Positions 5,772 to 55,427 of a stretch of 64,000 nucleotides of DNA are shown here, in pieces. Made by a program: the position numbers and the translations under genes. The notes under the pieces were generated by a model. That model made no database searches and had not been told where the DNA came from. It was given only the letters and a program-made list of their open reading frames with translations. The stretch comes from a bacterium (GTDB lineage: Bacteria > Electryoneota > Electryoneia > Electryoneales > Electryoneaceae), in assembly GCA_963669175.1 (NCBI GenBank), contig OY769902.1, forward strand, positions 1,743,515 through 1,807,514. The letters are read 5' to 3'. Numbering within the stretch: the stretch's first letter is position 1; each line of letters opens with the position of its first letter.

Positions 5772-6908
5772 TCAATTTTTTCTACGACCTGATCCTTTCT
5801 TTTTAACTCTATTTAAAAACTCTGATATGCCATGATCTTGATAATATTTCCATGCTTTTCGATATCCTTTGCCATAAGCCGGATCATCATTTTCTTCAAG
5901 CTGATCCAAATGATAGTCTGCGAGTTTACTGTGAATGGATTCCAGCATAATTCGCATGGCTACATTTGCCGAGCCTTCCCGCCAGTCGGCATGGCCGCCG
6001 TCCGCATCATTCTCGTGTTGCCAGACATGAAAAAGCTCATGTGCGGCAACACCGGATAACATATCACGCGGGAGACCATAAAGAAAATAGATTGTTGTAT
6101 CTTCACGAATAACTCTTCCATTCATTGTCTCCGAGTGAACCGAGTGCAGCCCATTGGCATCACCTTCGCCGCCATGCAATTCATGTAATTGATTTTTATC
6201 AACAAGGACGATGCTGATGTCATCCAGGCTGGTGTTGAATCGGATACCGTTGGCTTCCAGCACCGCAGCGGCTTCACGGACAATCTGAGCAGCCTTCCCG
6301 GCGTCGGTGACTTCCGTTTCACGGCAGACTTCACACTGAATACGTCCATCCGCCAATTTCCAGGCGTGTCCCGGCAGAGCAAAACGTCCGCAAGAATCAC
6401 ATAATTCAACCTGGTCCTTATACTCGGCGCTGATCGTGGTTCCCCACCAGTCCGTTACATAGGGACCGAGAATAGGCTGGCCGGTGATAGCGCAAATCGG
6501 GGCAAGGTTCTCTACATAACACGATTCATGATACACCTTGCCATCAATGGTGAAGTATTTGTCCGATACAGGTGCGCCACACCATTCACAACGCGGCGAG
6601 AACTCATGGTGATAACAATCGGGGTGATAAAATTTGCCCTTGTGTTCGATATAGCTGCCATCGATACGAAACCCGCAGGCGGCGCATTTGAAGCATTCCG
6701 GATGAAAGTATTTGCCATTGGCTTCGATGTACTGGCTGGTGATTACTTTACCGCATCCGGCACAGCGTACCCTCTGTGCCAGGGCATGGGTCGGTAATAC
6801 AATCAAGCCAACTGCAGCCGGTGTCACCACACGAACAAATCGCCTGCGATCCCACTTTTCGGCATCGGCTCGACATGTTCTCTCTGTGCTGTTCTTTTTG
6901 CAAGCCAT
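5772..6908 (-). CDS. LIM-type double zinc-finger protein fused to an HExxH zinc metallopeptidase (DA1-like architecture), Tat-like signal
   Basis: N-terminus has an RRRF twin-arginine-like motif followed by a hydrophobic stretch and ALA-Q. Then C-x2-C-x16-H-x2-C-x2-C-x2-C-x19-C-x2-H, which fits the LIM consensus, followed by a second C-x2-C-x16-H-x2-C unit and CDSC...CEVC. C-terminal region carries HELFH (HExxH). Confidence 0.6.
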   Translation of the reverse strand: MACKKNSTERTCRADAEKWDRRRFVRVVTPAAVGLIVLPTHALAQRVRCAGCGKVITSQYIEANGKYFHPECFKCAACGFRIDGSYIEHKGKFYHPDCYHHEFSPRCEWCGAPVSDKYFTIDGKVYHESCYVENLAPICAITGQPILGPYVTDWWGTTISAEYKDQVELCDSCGRFALPGHAWKLADGRIQCEVCRETEVTDAGKAAQIVREAAAVLEANGIRFNTSLDDISIVLVDKNQLHELHGGEGDANGLHSVHSETMNGRVIREDTTIYFLYGLPRDMLSGVAAHELFHVWQHENDADGGHADWREGSANVAMRIMLESIHSKLADYHLDQLEENDDPAYGKGYRKAWKYYQDHGISEFLNRVKKKGSGRRKN

Positions 6909-7019: not shown

Positions 7020-7634
7020 AGCAATCAGCCTGCTTCAGCAGGCTCTTTTTAGCACCCGGCTGAAGCCCTGTCTCTTGCTCACATCTTCGTGTTTCTGCCA
7101 CCCCAGAGGGGGTGGTATATTTTAGTGTAGGGTTGACGCTGTCTGTTTAGCGTCTACCCTACGAAAAAGATCAAACCTTATCTCAACCCTGGAAGGGTTG
7201 CATAACGTATAATTTACACCCAATTGGTTTGTATAGAATATAAAATGCGTTATTTCCTGTATTTATTGAACGTACTAATATGAATCGCGTATTATGCAAC
7301 CCTTCCAGGGTTGATTATTCGTTAGAATACCTGACATAGTGTACAGGCCAAACAGACGGCCTGTACACTATGCTAAAATAGGGAATCCCGCCGGGATTCT
7401 AAAAATGCTATGTCCACAACTCTTTTACTGATACAGCTTTCAGAAGATGTGAGTAAGAGACAGGGCTTTAGCCGGGTGGATTAGTGTAACTAAATAAAAG
7501 AGCGCGCTTTAGCGTGCTTGCTTGAACAACAGATTGCTGTTTTGGAAAGCACCCTGAAGGGCGCTCGATATAGTTGTTATCTTTGTCCCCCGGCTAAAGC
7601 CGGGGGCTAAGGGGAGCAGGCTAAAGCCTGCTAA
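7020..7634. mobile_element. composite MITE-like element (repeat family A, long copy) with nested inverted repeats
   Basis: Termini agcctgcttcagcaggct-ctttttag-cacccggctgaagcc (left) and cccccggctaaagccggggg-ctaagggg-agcaggctaaagcctgct (right) are inverted relative to each other. The same termini bound the 210-bp copy at 40126..40336. An internal segment at 7497..7585 matches the reverse complement of 40195..40275. Further nested IR pairs at 7050-7095/7425-7475 and 7190-7215/7285-7310. Confidence 0.5.
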
Positions 7635-7855
7635 TACTAATGGATAGAACCCCCTTGAGGCGAATACTTATGGATAGAATTCCCTTGAGATAGTAAACGG
7701 AAAGAAGCGCTTTTCAGAAACTGTGATAGAAGACAGATGTTTCGGCGAGAATAACTTTCGCTAATCTGAAGCCGCAAGAACTTCCGAGAATACCATACGT
7801 GGAACATATCCATTGTGACACGGTACAAGTTTCAGGACGAAAACAGGCTGGATTC

Positions 7856-9811: not shown

Positions 9812-9860
9812 AGTGAAAAACGTAAAGAAAGTGAAAAAGGTGAAAAAAGTGAGAAGCGTA
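9812..9860. repeat. phased 9-bp GTGAAAAAN tract (repeat family D)
   Basis: gaagtgaaaaacgtaaagaaagtgaaaaaggtgaaaaaagtgagaag directly after the TPR stop codon. The same periodic motif recurs at 54475..54540. Confidence 0.4.
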
Positions 9861-14015: not shown

Positions 14016-14245
14016 GGTCAATCTCGCTCTCACATCGTCATGTTACAGCTTTTCTTTACCGGACTTTTCCGGGCAATTTGTTGACTGGAAGGTACAGGAA
14101 ATCTACGAAGCGGGAAACCCCTTGGAAACATGTTCGGCTTGTCCGGTTCTCTTCAAGAACGGGTTCTTCATAGTGATAAAAAGTGAAGCCAAATGCAGAA
14201 CACCTCTTCCTATGGTTCAATCGTCATCTTATAATTCAGCATATG

Positions 14246-14480
14246 GTACATTGTATGGTTGAAAGCAAAGAGATGGAAAAAGGGGACTGCCTCCTTTCCC
14301 TGGAGTAAAACTATCCCACTGTGAACATGGACCGGGAAAGGTGGCTGTACCCTTTTCCTTGCGAGCAGGCAAGTAGTCCATGGAAAAGGGTACAGTTTCC
14401 TTTTCTGCAAGTTCAGCGAGAGTGTTTTGTGCGAGCATGAAGAAAAGGATTCCGTCCCCTTTTCCTGACAGCATGTCTAT
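14246..14480. repeat. repeat family B, copy 1 (about 235-bp hairpin-rich element)
   Basis: Shares roughly 80-90% identity with 35414..35663 and 44698..44962. Built from four imperfect palindromic modules of GGAAAAGG...CCTTTTCC type. Short ORFs inside differ in length between copies. Confidence 0.6.
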
Positions 14481-14552
14481 AATTCCATAATGACTGAACT
14501 TAATCAAGGAAAGCCATTTTAATACTTGCATGAATCGGACAAAGGAGTCTGT

Positions 14553-16308: not shown

Positions 16309-16384
16309 TGAAACGATCCTACTAAATCGGTCTACGTTGGAAGCTTTACGTCGTCAGGTCACACGCATGAAAATCGTATGCGCA

Positions 16385-16564
16385 AGACCTGACGAAACTG
16401 GCGCTGCATTAGACCTGACGAATCTGGCGCTGCATTAGACCTGATGAAACTGGCGCTGAATTAGACCTGATGAAACTGGTGCTGCATTAGACCTGACGAA
16501 ACTGGCATGGAGTAGACCTGACGAAACTGGCGCTGCATTAGACCTGACGAAACTGGCATGGAGT
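16385..16564. repeat. tandem array, 7 copies of a 25/26-bp unit (agacctgacgaaactggcgctgcatt)
   Basis: Seven head-to-tail units with a few substitutions; two units end in ggcatggagt. No spacers, so not CRISPR. Lies between the BI-1 gene and a small OMP gene. Confidence 0.85.
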
Positions 16565-27995: not shown

Positions 27996-28030
27996 CTCGC
28001 TCTCCCTTTTTAGATCCACTCACAGGCTTA

Positions 28031-28065
28031 ACAGGATAATAGGATGAAAGGATTTCAAGGATGAT
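28031..28065. promoter_or_regulatory. (AGGAT)n direct-repeat module upstream of dapB
   Basis: acaggataataggatgaaaggatttcaaggat. The same module occurs upstream of dapA (29714..29746) and glnA (31408..31447). Confidence 0.35.
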
Positions 28066-28118: not shown

Positions 28119-28158
28119 GAAAAACAGGGACTGACCCATCGTAGTCTGTCCCGTTTTT
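28119..28158 (-). terminator. bidirectional intrinsic terminator after the AT-rich orphan gene
   Basis: aaaaacagggactgac...gtctgtcccgttttt: GC stem flanked by an A-tract and a T-tract. Confidence 0.45.
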
Positions 28159-28253
28159 CGCAACTAAATCTGATCCAGTCTCTAAACCAATGGATGTTTG
28201 GCCCGACTGCTCGCTGTCGGGTTTCAGCTATCAGATAGTCAGCGTGAGATACA

Positions 28254-29682: not shown

Positions 29683-29713
29683 GCTTCCACTCCCAATATC
29701 TTACCGCAGGACT

Positions 29714-29890
29714 CACAGGATAATAGGATGAAAGGATGCCAAGGATAACTGCACAAATATACTTAAAAGATAAAGAAAAGCAATGATACGATTAGAATAA
29801 TAAATGCTATTAATCAATAATATAATTTGTCACCCATAAAATGTGTTTTTATCCTTGAAATCCTTCTATCCTATCATCCTGTTAAGCCTG
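29714..29890. promoter_or_regulatory. dapA upstream module: (AGGAT)n array, AT-rich spacer, inverted (ATCCT)n array
   Basis: cacaggataataggatgaaaggatgccaaggat (29714..29746), about 100 bp of AT-rich DNA, then atccttgaaatccttctatcctatcatcctgt (29851..29882). Same architecture as the glnA upstream module. Confidence 0.4.
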
Positions 29891-31361: not shown

Positions 31362-31407
31362 CTGTCTTCTCCTTCTATGTTCGCTTTTTCTTTTCCGACC
31401 TTTGGGA

Positions 31408-31578
31408 CTCACAGGATATTAGGATGATAGGATGATAAGGATAAGGCGAAAAGTTCTATTGAAAAGAAAAGATTTTCATTTGATCTTTCAAAAGTAAATA
31501 ATAAATAATTGATTACAGGGTTCTTGCTAATATTTTGTATCCTTGATATCCTTCTATCCTATCATCCTGTGCGACATG
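31408..31578. promoter_or_regulatory. glnA upstream module: (AGGAT)n array, AT-rich spacer, inverted (ATCCT)n array
   Basis: cacaggatattaggatgataggatgataaggat (31408..31447), AT-rich spacer, then tatccttgatatccttctatcctatcatcctgt (31538..31572). Lies between glnB and glnA. Confidence 0.4.
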
Positions 31579-35253: not shown

Positions 35254-35280
35254 TAGATTGTTCTTATTTTTTGACAAACA

Positions 35281-35318
35281 ACGGGACAGGCCGGTGCTGG
35301 TCTGTCCCGTTGTTCTCC
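35281..35318 (+). terminator. candidate terminator after the cytochrome gene
   Basis: Stem acgggacag / ctgtcccgt with a 12-nt loop, followed by tgttctcc. The U-tract is weak. Confidence 0.35.
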
Positions 35319-35413
35319 CTGATTCATACTGACTCACAGGATGTACAGATGGAGATTTATAGCGATTCCCATTATTATTCCGTCATGTGCAAGATCAGTG
35401 AAAGGTCAACCAT

Positions 35414-35663
35414 ATGGTTGGAATAAAGGATAAGGATATGGAAAAAGGGGACAGTTTCCTTTCCCTGGGGCAAAGCCTTCCCGCTGTGAGCATGGACCGG
35501 GAAAGGTGGCTGTACCCTTTTTCTTGAGAGCAGGCAGGACGTACACGGAAAAGGGTACAGTTTCCTTTTCCACAAGTTCGGCGAGAGTTTTTCATATGCG
35601 CGCGAGGAAAAGGATCCCGTCCCCTTTTCCCGGCAATCCTTATTATGTCGGAATAAAATCGAG
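35414..35663. repeat. repeat family B, copy 2
   Basis: Aligned with 14246..14480 and 44698..44962. Ends in ggaataaaatcgagaa as copy 3 does. Confidence 0.6.
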
Positions 35664-35772
35664 AACAGCAATACAAGATGTACAGGATGTTGAAGGATGA
35701 TCAGGATGGGAAATGATTGCTTGAGATAACTTTAGAATATAGTAGCGTGTCAACTTTTTACCTTTTGCTGTT

Positions 35773-36045
35773 ATCCCCGGCTTCGACCGGGGATCTCGCG
35801 GGATATCGTGTAAAGCCCGTTTGGCACTACTTGTGCGTCGTGGTGTACGTCTAACAGTCGGGATACTGGTAGCGCAACCTCGAGATCCCCGTTCAAGCCG
35901 GGGATGACATGGGGATGGGGGATGGGGATGGGGGATGGGGATGACATGGGGATGGGGATGACATGGGGATGGGGTGGGGATGACATAGGGACTGGGGGAT
36001 GGGGATGACATGGGGATGGGGGATGGGGATGACATGGATATTGGG
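35773..36045. repeat. hairpin repeats (family C) plus G-rich heptamer tandem tract
   Basis: Hairpins atccccggcttcgaccggggat and gagatccccgttcaagccggggatgacat, followed by about 140 bp of GGGGATG/GGGGATGACAT units. The overlapping 173-aa minus-strand ORF is a low-complexity artefact. Confidence 0.7.
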
Positions 36046-36186
36046 AGGACGGATGGCCCGATGCACAGGTGACAATACTTCCATACCAAACGGAGCAGGC
36101 AAACTCTCACAAGAACAAGCCTTACCAGTTGTTCTTCGAGTGCGTCGGGATGAATGAAAAACAATACCTTATAACTTCAAATCAAA

Positions 36187-40125: not shown

Positions 40126-40336
40126 AGCAATCAGCCTGCTTCAGCAGGCTCTTCTTAGCACCCGGCTTCAGTCGGGGTGTTCATGGTGACAAAGAAATGA
40201 CGAGCGCCCTTCAGGGTGCTTTCCTGAATCAGGACTTGTACAAGGCAAGCACGCTAAAGCGCGCTCAGAATGATCTCCGCATCTTTACACCCCGGCTGAA
40301 GCCGGGTGCTAAAAAGAGCAGGCTAAAGCCTGCTAA
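40126..40336. mobile_element. MITE-like element (repeat family A, short copy) with terminal inverted repeats
   Basis: Left end agcctgcttcagcaggct-cttcttag-cacccggcttcagtcggggtg. Right end caccccggctgaagccgggtg-ctaaaaag-agcaggctaaagcctgct. Together these form a roughly 45-bp TIR around a 110-bp core. Termini match those of 7020..7634. Confidence 0.55.
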
Positions 40337-40342
40337 AATTGT

Positions 40343-40414
40343 CAGATAGCAGAATGAATTCAGATTGCAGAATGAATTCAGATTGCAGAATGAATTCAGA
40401 TAGCAGAATAAATA
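40343..40414. repeat. tandem array, 4 copies of an 18-bp unit (cagattgcagaatgaatt)
   Basis: Direct head-to-tail repeats immediately right of the MITE-like element. Confidence 0.8.
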
Positions 40415-42030: not shown

Positions 42031-43179
42031 ATGCTGGGAATACACTTGCAAAGTCGTTTAACAACCGTTCCTTTACGCATCTCCCTGATTGCGTTCGCTC
42101 TCCTGTTCGCTGTACCCGGCCACGCACAGCTTCCCGGTAAAGGATTGGGCTATTTCGGCTGGAAAGTGATTGGTATTCCCTATGTATATGGCAATAGCGA
42201 TGACGGTCTGATCTTCGGGGTGTCAGCCGAAGCCACGTCACCGGGCGGCCAATACATGCAAGGGTATGTACAGGCTACATCTGGTGGGGCTCTCGCGGTC
42301 CGTGTAAAAGGTGAACTCCAATTCAGTTCTTTCCGGATTGTTGGTCGGGTGAAGGCGCAACAGGGAAATGAGTATCTCTACCCGACATCAGCAGTTGATC
42401 CCAAATGGATGGCCCGGGCGGATGTGTACCGTCTGGAAGCGCAGAGCGCCATGCTGTTCGAGGCGGCGTCACATCTTGAGATCGGACCTGATGTGGAAGT
42501 ATTGCTGACCGATGCAAAGAAACTGGAAGATCAAAATGAACAATCACTGCCCGACAATTCTATTGCACGATTTACACGCGGCTCTCATGCGCTGATCGGT
42601 GTGCGGCTGCGGTATCGTACGATGGACCCGATACGTCCGCTGCGTGGTTTTATGGTTGACGGCGCGTTTCGGATTGGCAGGCTGGGTGGTGCGACAGATA
42701 TCCGCTTTGATTATGCCTCCGAGGTTACTCTTGCCGGCGCCATCCCGATATGTTGTGACCTGCGCTGGTTTAATCGCATGTACGGCAAGCGCCAGATGGA
42801 AGCCACCCCTCCTATACAGACGGAACTGGGTGGTATCAAGACGCTACGGGGGCAGCCATCCGGACGAGACTATGGCAGGACTCAATTGGCCGGACGTTCG
42901 CAGGTCCATTGGACTATCGCGCATGGCTGGCGGGGCTTCTTTGGGACGCTTCATTCGATTATCCATGGCATCCCGGCATGGAAAGTCGATGTGGAAACCG
43001 TGGCGTTTTATGATGTGGGTATGACCGGTGATCCTACGTACGGCTGGCGGAAAATGAGGCATGGGGTGGGGGGCGGTTTCAGGATTGTCTTACCCCCGAC
43101 ACTGGTACTACGTGCGGATGTCGCGGTCTCACCCGGTGGAAGCCCGGCATTCTATATTGGTGTAGGTGAGGAATTGTAA
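42031..43179 (+). CDS. secreted Omp85-superfamily-like outer-membrane barrel protein (paralog 2)
   Basis: Signal peptide (LRISLIAFALLFAVPGHA). Motifs LGGIKTLRGQP, TIAHGWRG, FYDVGMTGDP. Clear paralog of 40640..41881. Confidence 0.45.
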   Translation: MLGIHLQSRLTTVPLRISLIAFALLFAVPGHAQLPGKGLGYFGWKVIGIPYVYGNSDDGLIFGVSAEATSPGGQYMQGYVQATSGGALAVRVKGELQFSSFRIVGRVKAQQGNEYLYPTSAVDPKWMARADVYRLEAQSAMLFEAASHLEIGPDVEVLLTDAKKLEDQNEQSLPDNSIARFTRGSHALIGVRLRYRTMDPIRPLRGFMVDGAFRIGRLGGATDIRFDYASEVTLAGAIPICCDLRWFNRMYGKRQMEATPPIQTELGGIKTLRGQPSGRDYGRTQLAGRSQVHWTIAHGWRGFFGTLHSIIHGIPAWKVDVETVAFYDVGMTGDPTYGWRKMRHGVGGGFRIVLPPTLVLRADVAVSPGGSPAFYIGVGEEL

Positions 43180-43185
43180 GCAACA

Positions 43186-44664
43186 TTGATATACTCGGTT
43201 TTGTTGAATTACTCAGGTCTTGCAAAAAGTAAAAGGCATGGTTCATTTTACAACCAAGAAGACGCCAAATCTCTTCAGTTGTAAAGGAGATAACCATGCC
43301 TGTCATAACATCGTCATTTTTTGAGTTACTTGCAAGTTTTCGTCCGGTGTTTCGGAAGCCTGTTTATGAGAATTTTGTACTGTTGGCTATCGGCGCTGTA
43401 TTGAATTTCGGTCGTCAGACAGTCTGTCAGTTATTACGTGTATTTCCCGGACCGGTAGCGAAGAGTTGGTCTTGTTATCACCATTTTCTTTCGTCTGCCA
43501 ACTGGTCCGCCCTGAAACTGGCAAAGATTCTCTGCTCTTTGATACTTGATCAGATTGCCGAACGTGATCCGATCCTTCTGATCGTGGATGATACCCTGAT
43601 CCGTCGTTGGGGAAAGCATGTTTACCAGATATCCGTTCACCGCGATCCCGTCCGTTCGGGCAAAGCAGGGACAAAAGTCGTTTATGCTCGCGGTCTTCAA
43701 TGGATGGTGATTTCGATTGGTTTGCGCACCCGTTATCGTTCGCAGATCTGGGCGCTTCCTGTATTCGTGTTTCCGGAGATCGCCAAAAAGCGTGTTCCGG
43801 AATCGAAGTACCGCAGTCCTGTACACCTGATCATTCTCGGGGCGCGTCTGCTGCTTCGATGGTTCCCGGACCGCCGTTTCCTTATCCTTGCCGACGGTAC
43901 GTTGAACTCCCACGAACTTCACCGTTTCGTGGCGAAAGAGAACCGTCTTGCTATCATCGGGCATTCGCGTATGGATACGGTGCTGCATGATCCGCCGCCT
44001 CCACCGAACGGGAAACGTGGACGTCCGCGCAAAGTCGGTGACCGTTTGCCCGCACCGGGACAAGAGGCGAAAAAGCCGGATGCTGCCTGGGAAAAAGCGT
44101 CTTGCCTCTGGTATGGGAACAAGACAAAAGACCTGTTGCTGCTTTCCGGTGTTGGCTGCTGGTACCGTTCCGGGGAAGATGTTGTCCTGATACGCTGGGT
44201 GGTGGCGCGTGATCCCGACGGCAAAAACAAGGACATTGTCTTATCTACATCCAAAACAGACTTAACCCCGGCCCAGGTTGTCAGCTCATATGTACGACGA
44301 TGGGCGTTGGAAACCACGTTTGAAGAGTCACGGAAACATCTGCGTATCGAAACGACAGAAAACTGGTCAAAAAAATCGATTCAAAGAACAGTGCCCCTGC
44401 TGTTTGGCTTGTTCAGTCTGATGGTTGTTTGGTATAGTCAGCAGCCAGAGCAGAAAGCTGTTGCGCAAACAGAGTGGTACACAAAACTGGAACCCAGTTT
44501 CTCAGACGTGCATCAGGCATTGCGTGCTGAATTGTGGATGCAGGCGATTTTTCCCGAATGCAAGCAGCCACGCGGATTCTTAAAAAAGAAAAGCAATATC
44601 CTTAAATTCCTTATTCACAAAGCCGCTTGATCCGCTAAAATGAGCAAAACCGAGTGATATAGTT
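43186..44664 (+). mobile_element. insertion sequence (IS4/IS701-superfamily), apparently intact
   Basis: Single transposase ORF flanked by imperfect terminal inverted repeats tgatatactcggttttg (43188..43204) and caaaaccgagtgatata (44646..44662), which share an 11-bp perfect core. Confidence 0.6.
43296..44630 (+). CDS. DDE transposase (IS4/IS701 superfamily)
   Basis: Candidate catalytic residues in LIVDDT and ILADG, and the Y-x2-R-x3-E-x6-K signature in YVRRWALETTFEESRKHL. 444 aa. Confidence 0.75.
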   Translation: MPVITSSFFELLASFRPVFRKPVYENFVLLAIGAVLNFGRQTVCQLLRVFPGPVAKSWSCYHHFLSSANWSALKLAKILCSLILDQIAERDPILLIVDDTLIRRWGKHVYQISVHRDPVRSGKAGTKVVYARGLQWMVISIGLRTRYRSQIWALPVFVFPEIAKKRVPESKYRSPVHLIILGARLLLRWFPDRRFLILADGTLNSHELHRFVAKENRLAIIGHSRMDTVLHDPPPPPNGKRGRPRKVGDRLPAPGQEAKKPDAAWEKASCLWYGNKTKDLLLLSGVGCWYRSGEDVVLIRWVVARDPDGKNKDIVLSTSKTDLTPAQVVSSYVRRWALETTFEESRKHLRIETTENWSKKSIQRTVPLLFGLFSLMVVWYSQQPEQKAVAQTEWYTKLEPSFSDVHQALRAELWMQAIFPECKQPRGFLKKKSNILKFLIHKAA

Positions 44665-44697
44665 GTTCTGTCATATGTTCATTTGCTGTATCAGTGC

Positions 44698-44962
44698 GAG
44701 ATCCACTGTATGGTTAATGGTTAGAGGAAAGGAAATGGAAAAAGGGGACTGCCTCCTTTCCCCGGGGTAAAGCCTTCCCGCTGTGAAAATGGACCGGGAA
44801 AGGTGGCTGTACCTTTTTTCTTGAGAACAGGCTGGAATTATACGGAAAAGGGGATAGCTTCCTTTCCCACGAGTTCAGCTAGCGTTTTTTGTGTGAGTGC
44901 GAGGAAAAGGATTCCGTCTCCTTTTCCCGACAATCTCATCACAACGGAATAAAATCGAGAAT
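44698..44962. repeat. repeat family B, copy 3
   Basis: Directly right of the IS. Aligned with copies at 14246 and 35414. Confidence 0.6.
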
Positions 44963-45051
44963 CATTATATTCCACTACGAACCCTAAGATATTGAGTGGC
45001 GGCTGTTTAAGGCATTACAACAGAAACAACAAACCATAAAGCAACACTACC

Positions 45052-54468: not shown

Positions 54469-54474
54469 CGGGAA

Positions 54475-54540
54475 GTGAAAAAAGTAGACAGTGAATAAAG
54501 TGAAAAAAGTAAAGAAGGTAAAAAATGTAAAGAAAGTCAT
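54475..54540. repeat. phased 9-bp GTRAAAAAN tract (repeat family D)
   Basis: gtgaaaaaagtagacagtgaataaagtgaaaaaagtaaagaaggtaaaaaatgtaaagaaagt directly after the cyclase stop. Confidence 0.4.
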
Positions 54541-54667
54541 TTGACGGGCAAGTGTGGCCCGATCCGCAAGTGACGTAACTTCCACTTTCCATTCAACAAC
54601 AATACTCCCACGACATCTCCATTCTATCCATACTCATGAGCGCATCGGGACGTGTCGTAAAGGTTGC

Positions 54668-54756
54668 AGGAAAAGGGGACTGTTTCCTTTTCGTTGCGCT
54701 GAGATATATGATTATAAATACAGGGGATCGAAAAGGGGACTGTCCCCTTTTCCATG
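54668..54756. repeat. repeat family B, partial/degenerate copy
   Basis: Two palindromic modules ggaaaaggggactgtttccttttc and gaaaaggggactgtccccttttcc about 50 bp apart. Confidence 0.45.
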
Positions 54757-55427
54757 AGACAAGGCTTCATCACTAACATGAGTCTGGATAAAGTTCTGTG
54801 TATTTGCCAAAGACTCGAAAGCTGCCACATTCCCGACTCACTCATAGTCGCGTCATGGATTGTCACTTCAGCACAGTACCCATCACGAACGACAGCGTCA
54901 GTTCCATCACGTACGAGTCGGGCCACCCGAGCTTGCTGCACAGGATAATGTCGTCGCCTTTGATCCGATGCGCTCAATGTTGCGTCACGTGGCATTGCTT
55001 CATCAGAGTATTCTTGAATCTGTCCACGAGGAAGCTATATCACTTGCGAGTCGGGCCACCCGAGCGGGGACTTGGGTATCCTGAACAAGGCCATCTCAAC
55101 TTAGCCTTCCTGGGTCAATGCGAAGTTCGCTGATTGACAACGCTACACATCCCGCAATCCAACCCTTTGAAAAGAATGGGCAGTCAAAATGCGAAGCGTG
55201 GTCAAGTTGAGGAATAGTGGGGAGATAGTGCTATCTGCATTGTTTTTAATTAGTTTCAATCAGCTTCAGCTTGAACTGACCAGACAGACTTCCCCCCACT
55301 TTTTCCACTAATTTCTTCTTACTTATGGATTCCTGACGAAATTTGATTATCTTATTAACACGGTGATTCTAGATTCTGCTTCGCATCGTTCGAGCAATTT
55401 CGGCACTCAACAACTGGGAGGGCCTGT

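Follow-up and report, generated by a model that had tools for sequence, protein, structure and literature searches.

Which kind of element recurs between genes, in one orientation and with much of its sequence kept, at several places in a single stretch of bacterial DNA? The question is raised by family B, a hairpin-rich repeat in a 64,000-nt stretch of contig OY769902.1 (the window, to which the results on family B refer unless stated otherwise). An earlier note on this DNA had offered two answers, a non-autonomous mobile element or a multicopy structured RNA. We think it reasonably probable that family B is a non-coding, non-autonomous mosaic of palindromes of the repetitive extragenic palindrome (REP) type, resembling bacterial interspersed mosaic elements (BIMEs) and REP doublets forming hairpins (REPINs), and that it is spread in trans by a REP-associated tyrosine transposase (RAYT) encoded outside the window. 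The first of the two earlier answers thus gains support, from a copy that splits an array of AGGAT units, from the 9-bp repeat around that copy, and from REP-type palindromes that flank RAYT-like genes elsewhere.

Copies and palindromic modules of family B

A repeat finder groups three 207-nt copies in register into one family, at 14267-14473, 35432-35638, and 44729-44935 (copies 1, 2, and 3), 82-86% identical to the reference. By alignment, the cores of these full copies lie at 14254-14465, 35413-35630, and 44717-44932; all are on the + strand and they are 82-87% identical, in agreement with the 80-90% identity and common orientation first described. Copies 1 and 2 align locally over 210 nt at 87%, copies 1 and 3 over 215 nt at 82%, and copies 2 and 3 over 281 nt at 83% (35383-35665 vs 44679-44961), the last two having about 30 further nt in common on either side. 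A hidden Markov model (HMM) made from the three full copies and run across the 64 kb matches them at E = 1e-105 to 1e-112. Its only other matches are the locus 54658-54766, with E = 1e-9 for the - strand and 7e-8 for the + strand, and the copies' own reverse complements, each at E = 1e-17.

Each full copy contains four imperfect palindromes of 24-26 nt, the number given in the earlier note. Their consensus, in a common orientation, is GGAAAAGGG[G/T]AC[A/T/G]G, 3-4 nt, CCTTT(T)CC. The arms differ, one being well defined and its partner looser, so that each palindrome has a direction; this direction strictly alternates (+ - + -), with start spacings of 58, 48, and 59 nt, and a copy comprises two inverted doublets, themselves mutually inverted. 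In copy 1, the canonical modules are module 1 (14275..14300, +, GGAAAAAGGGGACTGCCTCCTTTCCC) and module 3 (14382..14405, +, GGAAAAGGGTACAGTTTCCTTTTC); the inverted ones are module 2 (14334..14358, -, reverse complement GGAAAAGGGTACAGCCACCTTTCCC) and module 4 (14442..14465, -, reverse complement GGAAAAGGGGACGGAATCCTTTTC). The corresponding modules are at 35440-35465, 35499-35523, 35547-35570, and 35607-35630 in copy 2, and at 44737-44762, 44796-44820, 44844-44867, and 44904-44927 in copy 3. A search for the pattern GGAAAAGG-N8-CCTTTTCC, with up to 3 mismatches allowed, gave 23 matches where 0.38 were expected, confined to four loci, all + strand. The density is 14 modules at four loci in 64 kb.

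The modules are also what has been kept. Among the three copies, 11 of 99 module columns are variable (11%), vs 35 of 92 linker columns (38%; Fisher p = 1.6e-5), and the palindromes are therefore the constrained part of the element.

Modules 2 and 3 are complementary, as are modules 1 and 4, each pair forming a near-continuous helix of ~24 bp, and the two long linkers are partly complementary as well; the 200-nt core thus amounts to a single long imperfect palindrome. Folded half against half, it gives a long hairpin of -72 to -86 kcal/mol, on a par with the minimum free energy, as against just -27 to -32 kcal/mol for four separate local hairpins. According to these predictions the core can fold, as single-stranded DNA or as RNA, into either one long imperfect hairpin or four local ones. 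The + strand of copy 1 has a predicted fold of -90.6 kcal/mol (z = -4.0) and the - strand one of -83.3 kcal/mol (z = -3.7): both strands fold almost equally well because the element is self-complementary.

The fourth locus had been taken for a degenerate copy (54668..54756). A related locus is indeed present, in the form of a two-module doublet of ambiguous strand at 54669..54753 (copy 4: GGAAAAGGGGACTGTTTCCTTTTC, 37 nt, GAAAAGGGGACTGTCCCCTTTTCC), whose likeness to the large element is limited to the modules and, weakly, one linker. It is bracketed by a 14-nt inverted repeat (54625-54638 and 54777-54790).

Insertion of copy 2, and relatives in other genomes

Copy 2 lies between two exact occurrences of the 9-mer GATGTACAG (35340..35348 and 35677..35685, + strand), a candidate target-site duplication. 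This direct repeat delimits a complete element at 35349..35676 (+). The empirical P of such a 9-nt direct match, from window pairs identically placed elsewhere in the 64 kb, is 0.0045. Excising copy 2 with one 9-mer rebuilds GACTCACAGGATGTACAGGATGTTGAAGGATGATCAGGATGGG, in which four AGGAT units stand behind GACTCACAGGAT; motifs of the same architecture begin at 28025, 29709, and 31405. Given the rebuilt array and the duplication, we conclude that copy 2 arrived by insertion into a pre-existing motif.

The target belongs to a small repeat family of its own, in which GACTCACAGGAT precedes four AGGAT(G) units at intervals of 8-10 nt (28025-28064, 29709-29748, and 31405-31444), with the split copy at 35330-35348 plus 35677-35715. 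Two sites have inverted ATCCT partners (29851-29880 and 31539-31568) across an AT-rich stretch. The arrays are found just upstream (- strand) of dapB, dapA, and glnA and look like a common promoter/operator architecture, or a set of GGA-type RNA motifs.

The most probable agent of spread is a tyrosine (Y1, HUH) transposase of the RAYT type, or of the RAYT-like type known as TIRYT, encoded elsewhere in the 5.4-Mb genome, for which the palindromes would serve as recognition hairpins. Such an enzyme would cut and rejoin single-stranded DNA at the hairpins, spreading the element in trans. The whole mosaic, linkers included, has been copied as a unit of ~210-330 bp, after which the linkers drifted and the palindromes were kept.

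A rival possibility is a miniature inverted-repeat transposable element (MITE) in the strict sense, originating as a deletion derivative or by chance capture. A DDE-type transposase would then recognise the ends of the element and make a staggered 9-bp cut, and the REP-like palindromes would be passengers or ancestral. The 9-bp direct repeat that restores the interrupted motif is consistent with this, as are the subterminal inverted repeats of copy 2 (35358-35386 with 35645-35673, 72% complementary), to which copy 1 shows a similar partial symmetry by inspection. Furthermore, the whole element is one long hairpin, as are many MITEs, and the genome carries DDE-type insertion sequence (IS) elements. 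The exact ends do not conform, however. Copy 2 begins with ATGGAGA (resembled by ATGCAGA at the left end of copy 1 in a three-way alignment) and finishes with AATACAA, which are not terminal inverted repeats: the outermost ~14 nt are not complementary, about 3 of the 9 outermost positions match by inspection, and complementarity is subterminal only. In addition, just one of the three copies has a duplication, conservation peaks in the internal palindromes and not at the ends, and the sole IS in the window has unrelated ends and 5-bp duplications. We consider a strict MITE unlikely.

That IS is a complete IS701-like element at 43193..44655 (+), encoding a DDE_5 transposase (43296-44630, a 444-aa open reading frame, identified by Pfam). 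Its terminal inverted repeats are 18 nt long (ACTCGGTTTTGTTGAATT / AAATGAGCAAAACCGAGT), and the 5-bp duplication on either side of it reads GATAT (43188-43192 and 44656-44660); its ends (ACTCGGTTTTG...) are unrelated to family B. One family B copy had been said to abut it. The adjacency is real, but the IS has actually inserted into copy 3, at its left edge or just within it. The main part of that copy lies to its right (44661..44972, +, from the repeat family and alignments), while 43180..43192 (+), directly 3′ of the stop codon (43177-43179) of a 382-aa open reading frame, are probably its leftmost bases, split off by the IS: with the IS removed, the left sequence extends a weak homology to the left end of copy 2. 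The IS701-like element is a secondary insertion into the left edge of copy 3, and not part of family B.

Palindromes of the module type also occur in other organisms. A metagenome scan with two adjacent modules as the query listed matches at at least 120 loci. The commonest module among the matches listed is AAAAGGGG[AT]CAG, 3 nt, CC(C)CTTTT, whose core bases were not specified by the search pattern. Neighbouring modules in these matches are inverted in 41 cases vs 6 co-oriented, with a median spacing of 57 nt; the inverted-doublet arrangement is that of the window. The family B linkers were not found in the listed loci (nhmmer scores at most 36 bits, covering modules only), and the four-palindrome mosaic is therefore specific to this genome or lineage.

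At two loci (L120 and L100), genes for Y1_Tnp (IS200-like) proteins are directly flanked by modules. For proteins of this type, the best NCBIfam model is REP_Tyr_transpos, at 66-74 bits (80-bit cut-off), vs 15 bits for the IS200 model. The family of these proteins is very large, its named members being annotated in Planctomycetota as “transposase” or “REP-associated tyrosine transposase.” Four RAYT-like homologues chosen without any DNA motif criterion (L125, from Posidoniimonas, and L126, L127, and L128) likewise have flanking palindromes, of the form A-tract, GG..[AT]C[AC]AG.., T-tract (examples are AAAGGTGTCAGACACCTTTTT, GAAAAAGGGGTCAGGAATCTTTTTG, and AAAAAGGTACCAGGTACCTTTTT), and in L128 the gene stands between two inverted doublets. 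Module-type palindromes thus flank RAYT-like Y1 genes in 6 of the 6 loci examined.

Other searches for relatives returned little. None of the best 120 homologues of the L120 RAYT is from the source contig. A scan of genome contigs with an invariant 20-mer gave three chance matches, in unrelated GC-rich genomes and without modules. There was no family B match to plasmids and phages by distant blastn, nor in scans of viral contigs, and the palindrome strings retrieved just eukaryotic primer noise from literature text.

In one metagenomic case, on a GC-rich contig, a full-length TruD gene (L101, 1214-2581; Pfam E = 7e-96) contains four modules of the same family in frame (~2080-2200), which add ~40 residues of the form EKGxxPFS. 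Here a REP insertion has been tolerated within coding sequence.

Coding capacity, transcript structure, and genomic context

None of the reading frames stays open throughout the three copies, and the variable sites number 18, 20, and 15 at the three codon positions. A coding gene family is ruled out by the lack of a common open frame and of codon-position bias: a conserved reading frame, which according to the earlier note would have spoken against a repeat defined at the nucleotide level, was looked for across the three copies and not seen, and its remark that internal frames differ between copies is borne out. A leader peptide starting at the ATG of module 1 was also rejected, the position of its stop varying between copies by inspection.

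The second answer offered earlier, a multicopy structured RNA, could mean a small RNA or else a cis-acting hairpin (a stabiliser, terminator, or insulator), kept for a function on the + strand. Such an RNA agrees with the very stable predicted fold of that strand, with the constraint on the modules, and with the common orientation of the full copies. As many of the differences between copies are G-U compatible, the fold of the + strand is favoured by 3-10 kcal/mol over that of the - strand; in the long hairpin, 17 one-sided changes preserve pairing (G-U or similar) vs 11 broken cells. The 3′ tail of copy 3 has, by scan, an outward-facing promoter-like CCGACA-N17-TAAAAT, and a similar CCGGCA-N17-TAAAAT is visible on inspection at the same place in copy 2, where the scan did not report it.

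These indications do not add up to an RNA gene, however. At gathering score Rfam has no match in the window and none in 20 related loci, and with E up to 10 just sub-threshold generic miRNA-hairpin models appear. The covariance analysis proposed in the note found no compensatory double change in any of the 71 long-hairpin pairs, in a test that has little power with three sequences. Transitions alone would produce a ratio close to 17:11, and the - strand, too, has a stable fold. Scans of the copies and of the sequence upstream of them gave no promoter- or terminator-like site whose position is conserved. The contexts are mixed, too: a divergent promoter region, a convergent gap, and a co-directional gap. 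We found no positive evidence for a dedicated structured RNA, and regard one as quite improbable. Several more specific candidates were also set aside: a promoter of the sigma-54 or sigma-70 type ahead of the modules (no site being conserved); intrinsic terminators (see below); and a CRISPR array, attC site, or riboswitch (wrong architecture, and nothing in Rfam).

A further possibility is an array of protein-binding palindromes, or of bidirectional terminator-like hairpins, retained by the host to organise its chromosome or its transcription and no longer mobile. E. coli BIMEs bind integration host factor (IHF) and gyrase. REPs are described in PMC3479197 as recruiting IHF and affecting mRNA turnover. 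In family B, four dyad-symmetric sites are regularly spaced and conserved above their linkers, and an A-tract, GC stem, and T-tract together have the shape of a bidirectional terminator. Against this, copy 1 lies between divergent gene starts, where a terminator is of no obvious use; the terminator scan lists no module, for want of a free T-run after the stem; copy 2 arrived by insertion; and the sequence suggests no binding protein that could be named. A role of this kind seems to us improbable as an explanation of the family. Both it and the RNA reading are compatible with a mobile origin, the host role competing only as a present-day one. Transcription through a family B hairpin would certainly have consequences, and an effect on neighbouring transcripts, for example through a stable 3′ or 5′ hairpin, may be supposed.

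Two terminator-like hairpins after genes (28120-28159 and 35276-35315) are 73% identical, with GGGACWG...CWGTCCC stems and A-/T-runs; the core of the stem is similar to that of the family B modules.

All four family B loci are intergenic, between Pfam-supported genes. Copy 1, delimited as repeat family D1 and by local and three-way alignments (14193..14533, outer limits approximate, +), lies between the divergent glnS (-, start 14015) and a pfkB-family kinase gene (+, ATG 14554). In the closest available relative (GCA_964648415.1), the contig extends just 199 nt upstream of glnS, and gene order is not conserved at the copy 1 site. Copy 2 lies between convergent genes for a multihaem cytochrome (+, stop 35253, followed by the second of the hairpins just described) and an ECF S-component (-, stop 36187). 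Copy 3 occupies a gap between co-directional genes, the downstream one being truA-like (start 45052). Copy 4 is found between the genes for a glutaminyl cyclase (stop 54468) and a PIN-PhoH protein (start 55428).

Other repeats share some of these regions. In the intergenic region of copy 2, a G-rich tandem array of GGGGATGGGG(A)TGAC units (35905-36050, no Rfam match) is bracketed by ATCCCCGG...CCGGGGAT hairpins near 35775-35800 and 35885-35912; it may be able to form G-quadruplexes. Phased GTGAAAAAR arrays with a period of ~9-11 nt come directly after the stop codons of the + strand genes for a TPR protein (9812-9858) and the glutaminyl cyclase (54474-54530), the latter ~140 nt upstream of copy 4.

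Farther from family B, small hairpins whose loops are of the GCTNAAGC type (CCCCGGCTAAAGCCGGGGG and AGCAGGCTAAAGCCTGCT among them) form a further set at 7020-7650 and 40126-40350, the two regions having stretches of 42 nt at 98% and 69 nt at 80% identity in common. A short tandem repeat of CAGAATGAATTCAGATTG-like units (40345-40410) adjoins the second. The LIM-TPR intergenic region that contains small hairpins is ~890 nt long, vs 154 nt in the syntenic relative (L130 4839-4992). The product of the LIM gene (5772-6908, -) joins a LIM domain to a DA1-like peptidase region, a combination more familiar in eukaryotes than in bacteria; the gene is kept in synteny in two relatives (L130 4993-6132 and L132 6405-7493). 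Finally, ~7 tandem copies of a 26-nt unit, GACCTGACGAAACTGGCGCTGCATTA, are found at 16369-16557, between genes for a Bax1-I family protein and an outer-membrane beta-barrel protein.

Comparison with known repeat systems

REPs are characterised in PMC6006769 and PMC3337134 as short extragenic palindromes whose basic unit is an inverted doublet, the BIME or REPIN; the RAYT gene is described there and in PMC3116915 as typically single-copy and flanked by the repeats. Family B resembles the BIMEs and REPINs of E. coli and Pseudomonas, mobilised by RAYT/TnpA-REP, in many respects. It consists of short imperfect palindromes, is strictly extragenic and non-coding, has inverted neighbours joined by conserved linkers into larger hairpins, and is present in several copies per 64 kb; its palindrome type flanks RAYT-like genes in other organisms. 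It differs in that the foot of the stem is an A-tract/T-tract, that the copied unit is a four-palindrome mosaic of 210-330 bp and not a single doublet, and that one copy has a 9-bp flanking duplication. The modules also carry neither GTAG/CTAC nor an unpaired CGTC tag, and family B therefore falls outside the GTAG- and CGTC-tagged superfamilies of PMC3733652.

A second parallel is found in the TIRtron or TIRYT repeats, equivalent to the flanks of RAYT subclass 2.1 / Group 1. Di Nocera et al. (2013; PMC3733652) reported that the flanks of RAYT-like “TIRYT” genes share the sequence GGGGWSAS and sometimes seed moderately abundant repeat families, as dimers or clusters. Quentin et al. (2018; PMC6006769) found GGGG[AT][CG]A[CG] at the flanks of RAYT subclass 2.1, with no REP-like families for this subclass, and Bertels et al. 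(2017; PMC5581495) put the genome-wide number of the flanking 16-mers at only ~12 for Group 1, its counterpart. The copy 1 modules agree with GGGGWSAS at 7 of 8 positions (GGGGACTG, GGGTACAG twice, and GGGGACGG), and the metagenomic relatives GGGGACAG and GGGGTCAG, which flank RAYT-like genes, match it exactly. The published families differ in being moderately abundant at most, as against the module density of this window. The metagenome contigs show dispersed doublets, and the likeness to subclass 2.1 is one of flank motif.

Several observations weigh against placing family B with RAYT-mobilised repeats. The main discordant fact is the 9-bp duplication at copy 2, which is not expected from HUH enzymes: Y1/HUH transposition, as in IS200/IS605 elements, leaves no target-site duplication. 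A search for such duplications at the copy boundaries, suggested earlier, succeeded at copy 2 and failed at the homologous ends of copies 1 and 3, where the longest direct matches are 4 and 6 nt. The modules of the window are mostly one base off GGGGWSAS, with only module 1 of copy 2 (GGGGACAG) exact, and the tags typical of the best-known REPs are lacking, as described above. No RAYT gene was found in the window by tblastn (best E = 0.29), and no modules in ~22 kb of the closest available relative, where the expected count is too low to inform. Lastly, the metagenome loci were picked by a pattern derived from the element, and part of their module similarity is built in.

It seems conceivable, if speculative, that the mosaic arose from a RAYT locus itself. 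The layout of L128, with a doublet on either side of the gene, suggests that two flanking doublets might have been brought together into a gene-less REPtron or “TIRtron,” the RAYT/TIRYT gene having been lost and the fused doublets multiplying as a unit in a little-sampled lineage, possibly of the FCB group, at which a Por_Secre_tail protein in a 40%-identical relative hints. We hold this to be doubtful. If true, it would make family B the first clear high-density REPIN-like population for the GGGGWSAS/Group 1 RAYT class, and the 9-bp duplication would imply an insertion route unlike canonical IS200/IS605 single-strand transposition.

Among other intergenic repeats, the pneumococcal BOX, enterobacterial ERIC, and Neisseria Correia elements are, like family B, modular, 100-300 bp long, non-coding, and strongly hairpin-forming by prediction, and they may influence neighbouring transcripts. 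Family B has no known sequence similarity to them and no TA duplication, and differs in being built of REP-type blocks linked to Y1 transposases.

Of the features that define REPs, BIMEs, and REPINs, family B therefore has the short palindromes, the extragenic position, and the inverted doublets, and lacks the GTAG/CGTC tag. For annotation, its loci should be treated as repeat DNA and not called genes or small RNAs. For REP biology, a poorly sampled lineage is added to the hosts of RAYT-type palindromes; window and metagenome together suggest that GGGGWSAS-type palindromes, a class considered sparse, can form dense doublet populations; and the 9-bp duplication, if recurrent genome-wide, bears on the unsolved question of how REP-type elements insert. 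Family B is most likely an ordinary kind of mobile repeat, of the REP/BIME/REPIN class, in a poorly sampled bacterium, and in functional terms we would place it with BIME/REPIN-type mosaics of GGGGWSAS-type palindromes.

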